In this document: piece after piece, positions 9,312-18,805 of the stretch
Position numbering within the stretch: the stretch's first letter is position 1
Layout: the number at the start of each line of letters is the position of its first letter
Source: Geodermatophilaceae bacterium
Lineage (GTDB): Bacteria; Actinomycetota; Actinomycetes; Mycobacteriales; Geodermatophilaceae
Assembly (NCBI GenBank): GCA_013695685.1
Contig: JACCZY010000046.1
Location: forward strand, 5,464 to 69,463
Length of the DNA stretch: 64,000 bases
Reading direction: 5' to 3'
The notes under the pieces: generated by a model
What the model was told of the DNA's origin: nothing
What the model saw: the letters and a program-made list of their open reading frames with translations, nothing else
Databases searched by the model: none
Made by a program: the position numbers and the translations under genes

Positions 9312-10469
9312 GTGATGCAGTCGAGTCGTCTCCTGCTCCGCCGCACGCTTGTCCGGAGCTCGGTCGTAGCGGCATCGGCGCTCATGGCAGCCGGGCTGGC
9401 TGTCGTCCCGGCGTCGGCGGCTGATCCATTGCGAACCACCGAAGCTGCGGGGGCATCGCAGTTCATCGGGGAGGAAACTCTCCCTACGGGTCTGATGTTC
9501 GAAGGGACAGAGGTCGGTGGGCTGTCCGGGATCAGCTACGACTCCGCGCGCGATGTCTATTACGCGATCTCAGACGATCGCAGCCAGCTGGACCCGGCGC
9601 GGTTCTACACCCTGCAGATCGACCTGTCCGACGGTTCCCTCGACAGCGGGGACGTGTCTGTTATCAACGTGACCACGCTGCGCGATCCGCGAGGACGCCC
9701 CTTCCCGGAACTGAGCCTGGACCCAGAATCCATAGCGCTCACCCCCCGCCGCACGCTCATCATCACGTCCGAGGGAGACGCGACTCAGCTCATCGACCCC
9801 TTTGTGCGCGAGTTCAGCCTGAACGGACGGCAACTCAATAACGCATTCGTGCCGGGCTACTACGACCCGGCAGCCGACGGAACTTCCGGTGTACGGAACA
9901 ACCTGGGGTTCGAGAGCGCCGGCATCACGCCGGACGGGGACTACCTGTTCACCGGGACCGAGAACGCCCTGGCCCAGGACGGCCCGACCGCCACGCTGAC
10001 GACTACGAGCCCGGCACGGATACTGCGCTATGACCAGTCCGGTCGACTGGACAGGGAATTCGTGTACGTCGTCGAACCGGTGCAGGACCCACCGGTACCA
10101 GCCGACGGGTTCGTGGTGAACGGTCTGGTTGAGCTGTTGCCGCTCGGGCCGACTCGGCTGCTGGCGATGGAGCGCAGCTTCTCCACCGGCGTCGGTAATG
10201 ACGCCCGCGTCTACCTGGTGGACACCGCGGAGGCTACGAATGTCCGGGGGGTGCCGAAGCTGCCCGAGGACCTGTCGCTGCTTCGGGTAGTGCGCAAGAC
10301 CCTCGTCGTCGACCTGGACGTTCTGGGTATCACGTTGGACAACCTGGAGGGATTGACCTTCGGGCCGGCGCTACCCGATGGGCGGCAGAGCGTGCTGATC
10401 GTCAGTGACAACAACTTCTCCACCACCCAGGTGACCCAGTTCCTCGCTTTCGCGGTCTCAGGCCCCTGA
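9312..10469 (+). CDS. Secreted protein resembling the 'esterase-like activity of phytase' family
   Basis: Signal peptide ending in PASAAD. GLSGISYD, DPESIA, LEGLTFG and VSDNNF recall PF13449-type beta-propeller proteins; this assignment is from memory. Confidence 0.6.
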   Translation: MMQSSRLLLRRTLVRSSVVAASALMAAGLAVVPASAADPLRTTEAAGASQFIGEETLPTGLMFEGTEVGGLSGISYDSARDVYYAISDDRSQLDPARFYTLQIDLSDGSLDSGDVSVINVTTLRDPRGRPFPELSLDPESIALTPRRTLIITSEGDATQLIDPFVREFSLNGRQLNNAFVPGYYDPAADGTSGVRNNLGFESAGITPDGDYLFTGTENALAQDGPTATLTTTSPARILRYDQSGRLDREFVYVVEPVQDPPVPADGFVVNGLVELLPLGPTRLLAMERSFSTGVGNDARVYLVDTAEATNVRGVPKLPEDLSLLRVVRKTLVVDLDVLGITLDNLEGLTFGPALPDGRQSVLIVSDNNFSTTQVTQFLAFAVSGP

Positions 10470-10669
10470 GTTCACCGCCGCGACGATGAGAGCGCGCTCC
10501 GGTTCTTGTCGGCCCGCACGGCCAGGCGACTGACGGCGAGCACGCAGACGGAAGGCGTCCCCTCAGCGGGACGAGTTGTGCAGCGACGATTTGCTGACGA
10601 ACCACGTCCCGCAGCGTGTCGAGAACGCCGATCCATCGATCGACTCTCTGGCGAAGGCGTTGACGGTTC

Positions 10670-10691
10670 TGTCGGTGCTGGGGTTTACTAT
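10670..10691 (+). promoter_or_regulatory. RecA-NDp / PafBC-type DNA-damage promoter motif (TGTCGGTG-N8-TACTAT)
   Basis: tgtcggtg (10670-10677), 8 nt, then tactat (10686-10691). This matches the actinobacterial LexA-independent damage-promoter consensus tTGTCRgtg-N8-TAnnnT as I recall it. Confidence 0.6.
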
Positions 10692-10699
10692 CCCCTCAT

Positions 10700-10715
10700 T
10701 CGAACACAAGTTCGA
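10700..10715 (+). promoter_or_regulatory. LexA (SOS) box TCGAACacaaGTTCGA
   Basis: Perfect match to the actinobacterial/mycobacterial SOS box TCGAAC-N4-GTTCGA. It begins 9 nt downstream of the putative -10 hexamer, so it would overlap the transcription start. Confidence 0.8.
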
Positions 10716-10936
10716 ATGCCTGCCGGATCGAAGGTCTTTCGCGAAGCCGTCGTCTCGGCAGGACAGGGGCCAGGCTGTGGCCGGTCTGGCCCCGCTGGCG
10801 AGGACGCTCGCCGGAAGCAGCGGGTCTCGACCCCCGCTGTTTCGCCAGCTCGCTCACGGGTCCGGCGGTGCGGAGAAATCGCCGGCGGACCCGTGCTCCC
10901 GGATATAGATCGCCTCATGTAGCGAAGGGAGAAGTG

Positions 10937-11284
10937 GTGACCAGGCTGCATGCCGACCCCATCGACGTGGAGCGCGGCATGGTCGATGGCGGCAGCGGTG
11001 CCGAGCGGATCGAGGGACCTGCCCACTTCCACTGGGGCCGGCGGTCCTACGTCGTGCACGCCGTGCTCGATCACTGGATGGAGGCCGGGAACTGGTGGCG
11101 GCGGACCGGCCGTCCCCGAACCGAGCCCGGCGGTGCGGCACCCCGGCTCGACGACGGCGAGCGGGAGGTGTGGCGGGTCGAGGCCCGGCAGCTGCACGCC
11201 GGAAGGGACGCCCCGGTGGGCGTCTTCGATCTGAACTTCGACTGGAGCGTGGGGCGATGGTCATTGATTCGCGTGCACGACTGA
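10937..11284 (+). CDS. Small conserved protein, DUF6504-like (first gene of the DnaE2 operon)
   Basis: SD-like AAGGGAG lies 6 nt upstream of the GTG (alternative GTG at 10934). WMEAGNWW, EVWRVEA and GVFDLNFDWSVGRWSL match my memory of DUF6504 proteins. Overlaps the next ORF by 28 nt. Confidence 0.65.
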   Translation: MTRLHADPIDVERGMVDGGSGAERIEGPAHFHWGRRSYVVHAVLDHWMEAGNWWRRTGRPRTEPGGAAPRLDDGEREVWRVEARQLHAGRDAPVGVFDLNFDWSVGRWSLIRVHD

Positions 11285-11742
11285 CACGTGCACCACTGGC
11301 AGAGAGCCAGCCGACCCAACTCGCGTTGCTGCGGCCGAGGAGAGCGGTGTCCCCCTCCGCGCTCGTTCTGCTCGGTCAGGCGCAGGTTGGCCTGGCCGAG
11401 GCCGCTCAGTTGCCGTCCTCCGGTGAGCGGTACGCCGGGGCGCATCTGGCCGCGCTGCGGGCGACCGCGGCGGTGCTGGCGGCGCGGGCGAACCCGGACA
11501 CCCATGCAGGCAGCGGGTCGAGACGACGGCGCCGGCTGCGCAGCGCCTGGGATCTGCTGTGCGAGGTCGCTCCGGAGATGGGGGAGTGGGCGGCGTTCTT
11601 CGCCGCGGGTGCGCCCAAGCGCGCGGCGGCCGAGGCCGGTGTGACGCGAGCGGTCACGGCCCGCGAGGCAGATGACCTGGTTCGCGACGTCGAGACGTTT
11701 CTCGCTGTCGTGGCCACCACCGTCGGCGTCTGCCCGTCCTGA
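11257..11742 (+). CDS. SAV_6107-family HEPN-like domain protein (apparently lacks the Rx4-6H catalytic motif)
   Basis: ERYAGAHLAALRATAAVLAAR, RSAWDLLCEVAPEMGEWAAFFA and READDLVRDVETFL match my memory of the SAV_6107 HEPN family. The stop overlaps the dnaE2 ATG (TGATG). Confidence 0.65.
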   Translation: MVIDSRARLTRAPLAESQPTQLALLRPRRAVSPSALVLLGQAQVGLAEAAQLPSSGERYAGAHLAALRATAAVLAARANPDTHAGSGSRRRRRLRSAWDLLCEVAPEMGEWAAFFAAGAPKRAAAEAGVTRAVTAREADDLVRDVETFLAVVATTVGVCPS

Positions 11743-14700
11743 TGAGTGATCCGTTCGTGCATCTGCACGTGGCCTCCGGCTACTCGCTGCGCTACGGCGC
11801 CAGCCACCCCGCGACGCTGGTCGCGCGAGCGGCCGAGCACGGGATGGACACCCAGGCGCTCACCGATCGGGACGGCCTCTACGGCGCGGTGAAGTTCGTC
11901 AATGCCTGCCGCAGCGCCGGTATCCGGCCGGTCTTCGGGGTGGACTTGGCTGTCCGCCCGGCCGCCCATCCGGCGTTGAAAGGGGCGCCGGCCCGCAAGT
12001 CGCCGGCGCGGGGCGGGATCAGCGTGGACCCACGTCTGCCCCGGGTCACCCTGCTGGCGCGCACCGGTAAGGGCTGGGCCTCGCTGGCCCGGCTGATCAG
12101 CGCCACCCACCTCGGCGGGGAGCGGGGTACGCCGGTGAGCAGCCTGGAACTCATCGCCGAGCACTCCGAGGGCGTGCTGGTACTGCTCGGGCCGGAGTCC
12201 GAGGTCGGCCGGGCGCTGGCCGAGCGACGTCCCGACCTGGCCCGGGCACATCTGGGGCGGTGGCGGGAGGCACTGGGCCGCCGCCAGGTACTCGCCGAGG
12301 TGGTGCACCACCGAGCCAGGGGGGACCGGGTGCGGGCTGGTGCACTGCTGGGCTTCGCCGCCGAGCACCGGCTGCCCGCCGTACTGACCAACGCGGTGCG
12401 CTACGCCGAGCCGCATGACGCCCCGACCGCCGACGTGCTGGATTCCGCTCGCCGGCTCGTCCCACTGGATTCGCGGCACATCGACCGGCGTAATGCCGAG
12501 GGATACCTGAAGTCGGGCAAGCAGATGGCCGAGGTCGCCGAGGAGATCACCGGGCCGGACCGGGACGCCGCCGGCAGGCTGCTGGCTGCGACCCGGCAGG
12601 TGGCCGAGCGCTGCGCTGTCGATCCACGCGCCGACCTGGGAATCGGGGAGGTGCACTTTCCGGAACTGTCGGTCACTCGCCGGCCCCGGGAGGCTGCGGC
12701 CGGACCACAGGATGTGTTGCGGCTGCGCTGCGAGGCCGGCTTCGGCCGCCGGGGAATGGACCCAGGGCCCGTCGTACGTGGCCGGCTGGATGACGAGCTT
12801 GAAATCATCGGGACGCGCGGCTACCCGTCGTACTTCCTCACCGTCGCCGACGTGACCGACCTGATCCGGGCGATGAAGGTCAGGGTGGCCGCGCGGGGAT
12901 CGGGCGCGGGCAGCCTGGTGAACTACCTGCTCGGGATCTCCGACGTCGACCCGATCCGGCACCGGCTGCTGATGGAGCGGTTCCTCTCCCCGCTGCGCCA
13001 GGCGCTGCCCGACATCGACGTCGACGTGGAGTCCGCCCGCCGGATGGAGGTCTACGACGCCATCCTGGACCGCTTCGGTGCCGAGCGGTGCACGTGCGTG
13101 TCGATGATGGACACCTACCGGGTCCGGCACGCCATCCGCGACGTCGGCGCGGCGCTCGGCATGCCGCCGGGGGAGATCGACACCATCGCCAAGGCGTTCC
13201 CGCACATCCGGGCAAACCAGGTCAAAGCGGCGCTGTGCGACCTGCCGGAACTGCGGGCCAGCGGACTGGGCAGCGACCAGCTGACGGTGCTCTTCGACCT
13301 GGTCGAGCGGCTGGACGGCCTGCCCCGGCACATCGCCCTGCACCCGTGCGGGGTGCTGCTGTCCGATGCCACCCTGCTCGACCGCACGCCGGTGGAGGCC
13401 AGCTACCTCGGCTACCCGATGAGCCAGTTCGACAAGGACGACGTGGAAAACCTCGGCCTGCTCAAGCTCGACGTACTCGGCATCCGCATGCAGTCGGCGA
13501 TGGCCTACGCGATGGACGAGGTGGCCCGGGTCGACGGGCACCGGCCCGACGTCGACACCGCGCCGTTGGACGATCCGGCGACGTACGGGCTGATCCAGTC
13601 CACCCGGACGCTGGGGTGCTTCCAGATCGAGTCGCCCGGTCAGCGCGAACTGGTCGGCAAGTTCTCCCCGGAGACCTTCACCGACATCATCATCGACATC
13701 TCGCTGTTCCGGCCGGGTCCGGTCAAGAGCGACATGGTGACGCCGTTCCTGCGCGCCCGGCAGGGGTGGTGCGAGCCGCAGTACCCGCATCCGGATCTTG
13801 AGGACGCCCTGGCCGAGACGTACGGCGTGGTCGTCTTCCACGAGCAGGTGCTGGAGATCGTGGCGGTGCTCACCGGCGTGAGCCTGGCCGAGGCCGATGA
13901 GGTACGCCGGGCGCTCGGGGAGTTCGACGCGCACGCCGAGGTGCAGGCCTGGTTCATCCCGGCCGCGCTCGGCCAGGGCTATCCGCTCGACGTGGTCGAG
14001 CAGGCGTGGAATGTGCTCGCCGCGTTCGCCTCGTTCGGGTTCTGCAAGGCGCATGCGGCGGCGTTCGCGCTCCCGACGTACCAGTCGGCGTGGCTCAAGG
14101 CGCACCACACCGCGGCGTTTCTCGCCGGCGTGCTCACCCACGATCCCGGTATGTACCCCAAACGGCTGATCCTCGACGACGCCCGCAACTTCGGGATCGC
14201 GATCCTCCCGCTGGACGTCAACGTCTCCGACCAGGCCTATCGGGTGGAAAAGCAATCCGAGGGCTACGGCATCCGGCTGTCACTGACCGACGTCAAGGGC
14301 GTCACCGAGGCGGAGGTGGCCGGAATCGTGGCCGGGCGGCCGTACGCGTCGTTGTCGGACTTCTGGCGCCGCGCCGGGGTGTCGCGCCCGATCGCCGAGC
14401 GGCTCGTGCTCGCCGGCGGGTTCGACTCGACGTACGCGATCGGATCGAGGATGCCGGTACGCCGACGCAACCAGGTGACCCGCCGCGACCTGCTGCTGCA
14501 GGTGGCCGAGCTCGACGTCTGGAGCCGGGCGACCGCCCGAGCCGATCGGGCGCTGGCGCCCCGCAGACGTTCCGCCCACCGTCCCGCCGCCGGCGCCGCA
14601 GCCGCAGCCGGCGCACCGGACGGGCTGTCGGTGCGGGACTCGATACGAGACGCTGCCGCGCGGCAGTCACGTGCCACCGCCGGGGTCGCCCCGCAGCAGG

Positions 14701-15449
14701 TGCAGCTCGCCCTGGATCTCGGCGCGGGCTCCGGCTCGGGCTCCGGCGCGGACTCCGGCGCGGGGTCCGATTCAGGGGAGCGCCGCTCAGGACTGCCGGA
14801 GATGACCGAGGCGGAGCTGGTCCGCGCCGAGTTGGAGATCCTGGGGCTCGATGCCAGTCGGCACATCGTCGACTTCTACTCGACGTTCCTCGATGCCTTG
14901 GGGGTGGTCCGCTCCCGCGACCTGCTGGGGTGCAGGAGCAAGGCGGAGATTCTCGTCGCCGGGGTCAAGGTGGCCACCCAGACCCCACCGGTGCGCTCCG
15001 GTCGCCGGGTGGTCTTCGTGACCCTGGACGACTCCACCGGCCCGGTCGACGCGACGTTCTTCGAGGACGCCCAGGGGCCGTATGCGATGACGGTGTTCCA
15101 CTCCTGGCTGCTGGTCGTCCGCGGCGTGGTCCGCCGGACGGGAAGACGGGGCGTCTCGCTGCGGGCCACCGGCTGCTGGGAGCTTCCGGCGCTTCGCCAG
15201 ACCTGGGAATCGGTGGGAATGCCCGGTGTGTGGGAGGCGATGGACAGGTCCGCCGCGGACCTCACCGAGCAGGCGCTGCAGGGGGCGGCGGCGAGCCACT
15301 CCTCCCGGCCGGTGATGGCTCGCCCGGTGCTGGTTCACCCGTCGGGCTTCCGGATGTCGCCGTACGCCGACCTGAAACCGCCCGGGGAGGACGGCAAGAC
15401 CGTGCCGCGCAAGCTGTGGCACTCCAGCCCGGGCAGCTCCGGACACTGA
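11742..15449 (+). CDS. dnaE2: DnaE2-type (error-prone-like) DNA polymerase III alpha subunit
   Basis: PHP domain (FVHLHVASGYS, LTDRDGLYGAV). Polymerase core motifs LPDIDVDVES, GLLKLDVLGI, FQIESPGQ, SLFRPGPV and FGFCKAHAAAFA. C-terminal OB fold (ILVAGVKVATQTPP...VVFVTLDDSTGPVDATFF). The N-terminus resembles DnaE2 more than DnaE1. Confidence 0.85.
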   Translation: MSDPFVHLHVASGYSLRYGASHPATLVARAAEHGMDTQALTDRDGLYGAVKFVNACRSAGIRPVFGVDLAVRPAAHPALKGAPARKSPARGGISVDPRLPRVTLLARTGKGWASLARLISATHLGGERGTPVSSLELIAEHSEGVLVLLGPESEVGRALAERRPDLARAHLGRWREALGRRQVLAEVVHHRARGDRVRAGALLGFAAEHRLPAVLTNAVRYAEPHDAPTADVLDSARRLVPLDSRHIDRRNAEGYLKSGKQMAEVAEEITGPDRDAAGRLLAATRQVAERCAVDPRADLGIGEVHFPELSVTRRPREAAAGPQDVLRLRCEAGFGRRGMDPGPVVRGRLDDELEIIGTRGYPSYFLTVADVTDLIRAMKVRVAARGSGAGSLVNYLLGISDVDPIRHRLLMERFLSPLRQALPDIDVDVESARRMEVYDAILDRFGAERCTCVSMMDTYRVRHAIRDVGAALGMPPGEIDTIAKAFPHIRANQVKAALCDLPELRASGLGSDQLTVLFDLVERLDGLPRHIALHPCGVLLSDATLLDRTPVEASYLGYPMSQFDKDDVENLGLLKLDVLGIRMQSAMAYAMDEVARVDGHRPDVDTAPLDDPATYGLIQSTRTLGCFQIESPGQRELVGKFSPETFTDIIIDISLFRPGPVKSDMVTPFLRARQGWCEPQYPHPDLEDALAETYGVVVFHEQVLEIVAVLTGVSLAEADEVRRALGEFDAHAEVQAWFIPAALGQGYPLDVVEQAWNVLAAFASFGFCKAHAAAFALPTYQSAWLKAHHTAAFLAGVLTHDPGMYPKRLILDDARNFGIAILPLDVNVSDQAYRVEKQSEGYGIRLSLTDVKGVTEAEVAGIVAGRPYASLSDFWRRAGVSRPIAERLVLAGGFDSTYAIGSRMPVRRRNQVTRRDLLLQVAELDVWSRATARADRALAPRRRSAHRPAAGAAAAAGAPDGLSVRDSIRDAAARQSRATAGVAPQQVQLALDLGAGSGSGSGADSGAGSDSGERRSGLPEMTEAELVRAELEILGLDASRHIVDFYSTFLDALGVVRSRDLLGCRSKAEILVAGVKVATQTPPVRSGRRVVFVTLDDSTGPVDATFFEDAQGPYAMTVFHSWLLVVRGVVRRTGRRGVSLRATGCWELPALRQTWESVGMPGVWEAMDRSAADLTEQALQGAAASHSSRPVMARPVLVHPSGFRMSPYADLKPPGEDGKTVPRKLWHSSPGSSGH
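14721..14778 (+). repeat. Low-complexity Gly/Ser/Ala/Asp-coding repeat inside dnaE2 (GAGSGSGSGADSGAGSDSG)
   Basis: Reiterated ggctcc/ggcgcg hexamers, in frame, located between the polymerase core and the OB-fold domain. Confidence 0.7.
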
Positions 15450-18055: not shown

Positions 18056-18805
18056 ATGTCCCCGGACGACCGCTTCGTGCCAGGCGGCGCGGCGCTGTCC
18101 GCGCGGACCGCCGCGGTCTGGTCGGTCCTGTACGGCGAGCTTGGCCGCCGACCCGGCGCTGAACTGTCCATTGTGGACGTCGGGGGTGGTACCGGCGGAT
18201 TCGCCGTCCCCCTGGCTCAACTGGGGCACGTGGTCACCGTCGTCGACCCGAGCCCGGACGCGCTGGCCACGCTGGACCGCCGGGCGCAGACCGCCGACGT
18301 GGCTGATCGAATCCGGGCGATCCAGGGCGACACGGACACGCTGCTCGACTTGGTCGCGCCGGACAGCGCGGACCTGGTGTTGTGCCACAGCCTGCTGGAG
18401 GTCGTGGACGACCCAGAGCGGACCCTCCGGCGCGTGGCCGCCGTCCTGCGCGCCGGCGGCTGCCTCAGCGTCCTCGTCGCCAACCGGGCGGCTGCGGTCC
18501 TCGCCCGGGCGCTGGGCGGGCACTTCGCCGAGGCGCAGCGGGCACTCGCCGACCCCGAGGGGCGCTGGGGGGATGGCGACGGGAGCACCCGCCGCTTCGA
18601 CACCGGCCGGATCCTTGCCATGCTCGATGGGGTCGGCCTGTCCGTCGAGCAACTGCACGGGGTCCGGGTGGTCGCCGATCTGGTTCCGGGCGCGGTGGCC
18701 GACGGGGCGGGGGAGTCGCTGGTGGACGTCGAACTCGCGTTGGCCGCCGTTTCGCCGTACCGGGACATCGCGACCCAACTGCACGTCCTCGCCCGCAAGC
18801 CCTGA
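18056..18805 (+). CDS. Class I SAM-dependent methyltransferase
   Basis: SAM-binding motif I, IVDVGGGTGGFAVPLA, with a post-I acidic residue (VVDPS). Confidence 0.8.
   Translation: MSPDDRFVPGGAALSARTAAVWSVLYGELGRRPGAELSIVDVGGGTGGFAVPLAQLGHVVTVVDPSPDALATLDRRAQTADVADRIRAIQGDTDTLLDLVAPDSADLVLCHSLLEVVDDPERTLRRVAAVLRAGGCLSVLVANRAAAVLARALGGHFAEAQRALADPEGRWGDGDGSTRRFDTGRILAMLDGVGLSVEQLHGVRVVADLVPGAVADGAGESLVDVELALAAVSPYRDIATQLHVLARKP

Follow-up and report, generated by a model that had tools for sequence, protein, structure and literature searches.

Two DNA damage inputs in actinobacterial promoters

Dual control by the SOS response and PafBC, including promoters that carry both motifs, is already published for mycobacteria. 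The mycobacterial recA gene has both a LexA site and a PafBC site, and the two sites at imuA'/B are 166 nt apart (PMC8682763). Mycobacterial dnaE2 and imuB need both pathways, above all after quinolones (PMC8682763). In Mycobacterium tuberculosis, Rv2100, ruvC, Rv2719c and recA bind LexA and also carry the RecA-NDp motif, and these genes are only partly RecA-dependent (PMC3381160). The mapped start of Rv2100 lies inside a functional SOS box, and when this box is destroyed, basal expression climbs as high as that of the induced wild type; induced expression is raised as well, and damage induction persists (PMC3381160). PafBC promoters have a -26 element, which PafB contacts at a GTC triplet, and a canonical -10 element but no -35 element, and a cryo-EM-based model positions PafBC between sigma region 4 and the DNA (PMC8635444). 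A PafB protein and a recA promoter of Blastococcus (Geodermatophilaceae) appear in published PafBC alignments. Timinskas et al. (2026) describe DnaE2B polymerases of Actinobacteria that are associated with a small stand-alone ImuB-C protein where the genome lacks imuA and imuB, and they mention neither LexA nor PafBC, HEPN or a leader (PMC12926913).

The locus described here lies in a window of 64 kb, which is the whole stretch of DNA that was analysed. Protein homologues point to Geodermatophilaceae as its lineage. Like Rv2100, ruvC and Rv2719c (PMC3381160; Dawson 2010 and Brooks 2006 as cited there), it combines in one promoter region -26 and -10 elements of PafBC type with a LexA box that lies at the start site or across it. 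The boxes of Rv2100 (13E12/DUF222 family), ruvC and Rv2719c have one to three mismatches, and their client genes are others (PMC3381160), whereas the present promoter has a perfect box at a fixed 8-nt offset, a DUF6504-HEPN-DnaE2B client and a long structured leader. With the mycobacterial mutasome (dnaE2, imuA'-imuB; Adefisayo et al. 2021, PMC8682763) it has in common a C-family polymerase system, in the present case putatively error-prone, with LexA and PafBC motifs. However, in the mutasome and recA genes each site has a promoter of its own (at a distance of about 166 nt for imuA', and as P1 versus P2 for recA), and the mutasome polymerase is DnaE2A with ImuA'/ImuB (PMC8682763), whereas here both sites are fused and the cassette is of another type. 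The motif, its -26 element, the canonical -10 and the lack of a usable -35 agree with the PafBC 'sigma adaptation' promoters (Mueller et al. 2021, PMC8635444), and the geometry fits that model. In contrast, the model recA promoter has no LexA box in its core, and the conserved TTGACG found here at -38 is not part of the model (PMC8635444). A DnaE2-like polymerase beside a small stand-alone protein is also the pattern of the DnaE2B-[ImuB-C] modules, which are found only in Actinobacteria (PMC12926913), in which case the DUF6504 protein would be the candidate counterpart of ImuB-C.

The composite promoter is thus a well-conserved but ordinary case of known dual control. New are the operon that it serves, the operator with its perfect sequence and fixed position, and how widely the layout occurs in Actinobacteria. 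Because the dual-control biology is already established, the gain is one of scope and not of principle.

The composite promoter and its conservation

The elements of the promoter are as follows.

10660..10665, plus strand: upstream element TTGACG, conserved, -38 to -33 from the predicted start
10670..10677, plus strand: PafBC-type -26 element TGTCGGTG, with its GTC triplet at about -27 to -25 from the predicted start
10686..10691, plus strand: -10 hexamer TACTAT (TAnnnT), 8 nt 3' of the -26 element block
A10698, plus strand: predicted transcription start, placed by geometry 7 nt past the -10
10700..10715, plus strand: LexA operator (SOS box) TCGAACacaaGTTCGA, +3 to +18 from the predicted start

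The preliminary description had read cTGTCGGTG (10669-10677), ctggggtt (10678-10685) and TACTAT as a PafBC/RecA-NDp-type motif, and direct reading of the sequence bears out both the letters and the coordinates, with TGTCGGTG, an N8 spacer (10678-10685) and TACTAT in that order. The part TGTCGG (10670-10675)-N10-TACTAT fits the published PafBC consensus tGTCgg(N10)tA(N3)T and is unique in the window, where TGTCGG-N10-TA-N3-T is expected 0.12 times by chance. Eight bases (10692-10699) separate TACTAT from TCGAACacaaGTTCGA, which begins at the ninth base past the -10. This sequence is the perfect SOS box that had been claimed, as all 12 half-site bases match the mycobacterial box TCGAAC-N4-GTTCGA, and the window holds one exact copy of it compared with 0.00 expected from 100 shuffles. 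The palindrome extends beyond the box to 20 bp, ATTCGAAC-N4-GTTCGAAT, at 10698-10717. The two sites adjoin each other in intergenic DNA, and both are on the plus strand and point at the plus-strand DUF6504-HEPN-polymerase operon. The upstream gene, which is phytase-like (9312-10469), is co-directional, and hence the promoter serves no divergent gene. The higher AT content noticed earlier in this region holds modestly, the GC fraction in 100-nt windows being 0.57-0.59 over 10600-10750 and about 0.62-0.81 in the flanks.

Conservation was assessed in relatives picked by the DUF6504 protein alone, blind to the promoter. They came from a scan of one genome per species (5 loci), from contigs encoding homologous proteins and from representatives of clusters at 50% identity or less, four of which were taken from an exhaustive library for locus look-up. 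Seventeen distinct loci were evaluable, and two further loci had too little upstream sequence. All 17 carry a perfect TCGAAC-N4-GTTCGA and TGTCGG-N10-TAnnnT at a gap of 8-9 nt, and these include loci whose proteins are only 44-46% identical to the DUF6504 protein of the window; three of the cluster representatives at 50% identity or less are among the loci carrying both motifs. The 12 half-site bases of the LexA box are kept in each of the 17, and its central N4 varies. When 14 loci are aligned without gaps, positions -38 to +18 have a pairwise identity of 80%, compared with 31% in the 60 nt farther upstream. The variation falls in the spacer, in the discriminator and in the N4 centre of the box, namely the bases that are free in both motifs. 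The -10 is TACT[A/G]T in close relatives and TAGTCT in loci L004 and L005, and the base 7 nt past the -10 is a purine in 14 of the 14 aligned loci. Chance co-occurrence of the two motifs is ruled out by the shuffle counts, the intergenic adjacency and the conservation in relatives. The proposal that both actinobacterial damage-control inputs act on one promoter is thus supported at the sequence level by the consensus matches, their orientation and the fixed spacing in 17 of 17 relatives.

At locus L144, a called 228-aa gene within positions 1-700 runs across the composite promoter and the leader that precede a DUF6504 gene. It is probably an artefact of gene calling in GC-rich DNA.

The palindrome could in principle be the operator of a dimeric repressor other than LexA, and ArsR-family proteins have been speculated to bind SOS-box-like sites in M. 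tuberculosis (PMC8151990). Such a reading is highly improbable, however, since the palindrome agrees in full with the actinobacterial LexA consensus that experiments have defined and precedes an error-prone polymerase operon, which is a core member of the LexA regulon in many phyla (PMC3381160).

The upstream element TTGACG raises the question of an ordinary LexA-repressed SigA promoter, in which TGTCGG would be incidental or read by a factor other than PafBC and TTGACG would serve as an unusual -35. The hexamer is near-consensus as a -35 and identical in 12 of the 14 protein-selected loci, and its role is unexplained by the published PafBC promoter model. Relatives of the cassette in Nonomuraea (34% identity) and on a Streptomyces plasmid (polymerase copy) also have LexA-like boxes, while the PafBC motif was not found at the Nonomuraea locus or at the one Streptomyces plasmid locus scanned. 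On the other hand, TTGACG is the sole -35-like hexamer and lies 20 nt from the -10, which is too long for a normal SigA -35 and leaves the canonical spacing of 16-19 nt unfilled, and a sigma-70 scan of 10400-11000 found no promoter; a terminator scan of the same range found no terminator. Furthermore, TGTCGG-N10-TAnnnT is exact even in distant relatives with different spacer bases, and among the metagenome matches listed the motif pair recurs before known PafBC/LexA clients (recA, dnaB, LysM/Rv2719c-like and DUF222/13E12-like genes). We therefore regard the SigA promoter as quite unlikely.

The relatives without the motif indicate that the PafBC part is lineage-specific. They are in line with a published remark on S. 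venezuelae, in which no mycobacterial PafBC motif was found (PMC9380542). The polymerases encoded on Streptomyces plasmids show about 50% identity. The LexA-like boxes in question are GAGAACatatGTTCGA and TCGAACtattGTCCGA, at L126 (Nonomuraea gerenzanensis NZ_LT559118.1) and L140 (S. clavuligerus pSCL3), respectively; the Nonomuraea record is 11.85 Mb long and filed as a plasmid.

The preferred reading, to which we give a probability of about 0.78, is a single DNA damage promoter read by two regulators, the activator PafBC and the repressor LexA. RNA polymerase with the housekeeping sigma factor would be unable to use this promoter by itself, since the good -10 (TACTAT) is not accompanied by a -35 within usable reach. 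PafBC, activated by single-stranded DNA, would bind the TGTCGG element near -26 and adapt sigma, with transcription predicted to start at about A10698. The sequencing runs that contain this sequence are all DNA metagenome contigs that pass through the region, and no 5' ends are seen in them. A LexA dimer on the +3 to +18 palindrome would cover the start together with the polymerase contacts downstream and would leave the PafBC site free. By lying over the start and the initially transcribed DNA, the dimer would block the polymerase. Because LexA would overlap the start but not the PafBC site, the simplest reading of the regulatory logic is that repression by occlusion is added to an activation that is itself obligatory, and strong expression would need both LexA cleavage via RecA filaments and activation by PafBC, a brake on top of an activator. 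The transcript is expected to consist of a 221-nt structured leader followed by the translationally coupled genes for DUF6504, HEPN_SAV_6107 and a DnaE2B-type error-prone polymerase.

The same two sites may follow a looser logic, in which PafBC largely overrides LexA, induction is mostly RecA-independent and control is OR-like or graded, with LexA trimming basal and peak levels. M. tuberculosis ruvC, Rv2719c, Rv2100 and recA, which have both motifs, have been classed as only partially RecA-dependent, and the same paper attributes the larger part of ruvC and Rv2719c induction to the RecA-NDp motif (PMC3381160). However, the mycobacterial boxes have one to three mismatches, whereas here a perfect 20-bp extended palindrome lies over +3 to +18 with the box perfect in 17 of 17 loci, and full induction of imuB in mycobacteria requires both pathways (PMC8682763). 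Looser logic is therefore unlikely, but it is the most serious competitor of brake-on-activator control. As the two-motif genes of M. tuberculosis depend on RecA only in part (PMC3381160), a strict AND gate need not follow, and the mycobacterial data warn that the logic may be graded.

The polymerase operon and its leader

The promoter had been said to drive the DnaE2 operon. A polymerase operon does lie downstream, but it is not a bare DnaE2 operon: the order is DUF6504, HEPN_SAV_6107 and a putative DnaE2B-type polymerase, and a 221-nt structured leader lies between promoter and genes.

10716..10936, plus strand: 5' leader of 221 nt with four covarying hairpins in an alignment of 12 relatives
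10766-10793, plus strand: hairpin A
10795-10814, plus strand: hairpin B
10816-10841, plus strand: hairpin C, with the invariant loop UCUCGACC
About 10855-10895, plus strand: hairpin D
10937..11284, plus strand: DUF6504 protein, 115 aa (Pfam PF20114, E = 3e-13), with a GTG start and the Shine-Dalgarno (SD) sequence GAAGGGAG
11257..11742, plus strand: HEPN_SAV_6107 protein, 161 aa (Pfam PF18726, E = 3.5e-36)
11742..15449, plus strand: C-family DNA polymerase, 1235 aa, putatively of the DnaE2B type, with PHP, DNA_pol3_alpha, finger, HHH_6 and OB domains

The HEPN_SAV_6107 gene overlaps the DUF6504 gene by 28 nt, an overlap that is the same in L127, L133 and L138, and the ATG of the polymerase gene and the stop codon of the HEPN gene have one base in common. 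In the NCBIfam models the polymerase scores 676 bits against a cut-off of 1002 for replicative DnaE and 656 against 939 for the error-prone polymerase, both below the cut-off. A profile search with DUF6504 over 1.8 billion representatives gave 754 matches; nearly all of the best 150 of the 754 stand alone and are 90-200 aa long, and none of these 150 is a protein of ImuB length with a C-terminal DUF6504 match.

In the alignment of 12 relatives, the leader forms 45 pairs with 98.9% of cells paired, and 10 pairs show compensatory changes. The observed covariation values were reached by 0-1 of 500 shuffles, and slid controls were far lower. A search of 10400-11100 against Rfam gave no family match. 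The structure includes invariant G-U pairs and is therefore assigned to the plus strand, which in turn indirectly supports an RNA start upstream of 10766. An upstream open reading frame was rejected as an explanation of the leader: L003, L004 and further loci lack the ATG at 10716, and compensatory base-pair changes are seen with no codon-like conservation.

After hairpin D, the sequence CUCCC (10897-10901) pairs with the SD sequence GGGAG (10926-10930) in the minimum free energy fold of the window, and a CU-rich stretch pairs with the SD sequence in the minimum free energy folds of some relatives, too. This pairing suggests translational masking. The element TCGACCC occurs within 350 nt past the composite promoter at 32 of 69 cassette loci compared with 1 of 58 other composite-promoter loci. 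It is found mostly where a HEPN gene is present, and also in HEPN-methyltransferase operons without a polymerase. A further proposal is that the promoter is the first of three control layers, and that the leader is an undescribed cis-regulatory RNA read by the co-encoded, catalytically inert HEPN_SAV_6107 protein, which would mask or unmask the SD sequence to control translation. We consider this proposal doubtful. The leader and its HEPN link are a more unusual by-product of the analysis than the promoter itself.

Recurrence of the layout in public metagenomes

Metagenome contigs were scanned with the pattern TGTCRGTG-N8-TANNNT-N(0-30)-TCGAAC-N4-GTTCGA. This joint pattern was found in at least 120 loci. 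Among the 120 matches listed, the distance from the -10 to the LexA box is 0-1 nt in 38 and 7-9 nt in 65, with almost nothing above 14 nt. When promoters of at least 80% identity were collapsed, the matches listed gave 83 clusters and both gap modes persisted, with 30 clusters at 0-1 nt and 34 at 7-9 nt; compared with a uniform spread, the gap distribution of these 83 clusters has a chi-square p of about 1e-47. The downstream families among the 120 matches listed are as follows.

DnaE2B cassettes (DUF6504, with or without HEPN, then the polymerase): 52, the commonest family
LysM gene followed by nrdR (Rv2719c-like position): 24
DUF222/HNH (13E12-like): 9
dnaB: 4
nrdR: 3
recA: 2
ImuA'-like: 1
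Methyltransferase: 1
Family unassigned, many of them on cut contigs: 24

Because this set was chosen by motif, it shows that the layout recurs and where, not how often a given gene has it. The fusion of LexA and PafBC sites known from a few mycobacterial genes appears as the standard switch of the DUF6504-HEPN-DnaE2B cassette class in soil and freshwater Actinobacteria. These cassettes represent a recently described and uncharacterised class of error-prone polymerases, and the composite promoter makes a testable prediction of when such mutagenic enzymes are made. The perfect operator with its fixed spacing also offers a clean natural template for work on how one promoter joins a repressor with a sigma-adapting activator.

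In low-GC lineages, which are probably freshwater ones, the LexA box abuts the -10 and the ATG of the DUF6504 gene lies inside the box, which implies a leaderless mRNA. Throughout the phylum, PafBC/LexA promoters may fall into two mechanistic classes that are set apart by the LexA offset, 0-1 or 7-9 nt past the -10. The arrangement TCGAACAT-ATG-TTCGA is seen in L012, L014, L029, L045, L050, L057, L111 and L124, where the cassette is without HEPN.

HEPN_SAV_6107 paralogues stand directly behind a PafBC plus LexA composite promoter in L046, L064, L096 and L113 and also in L006, L109, L112 and L105. Some of them are followed by a SAM methyltransferase and some are alone, and several of the loci have the TCGACCC element. 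Within the sequence fetched for these paralogue loci, there was no match to DUF6504 or the polymerase. In the window itself, a homologue of the methyltransferase of the HEPN operons, with 66% identity, is encoded at 18098-18802 on the plus strand, 2.6 kb downstream of the polymerase gene.
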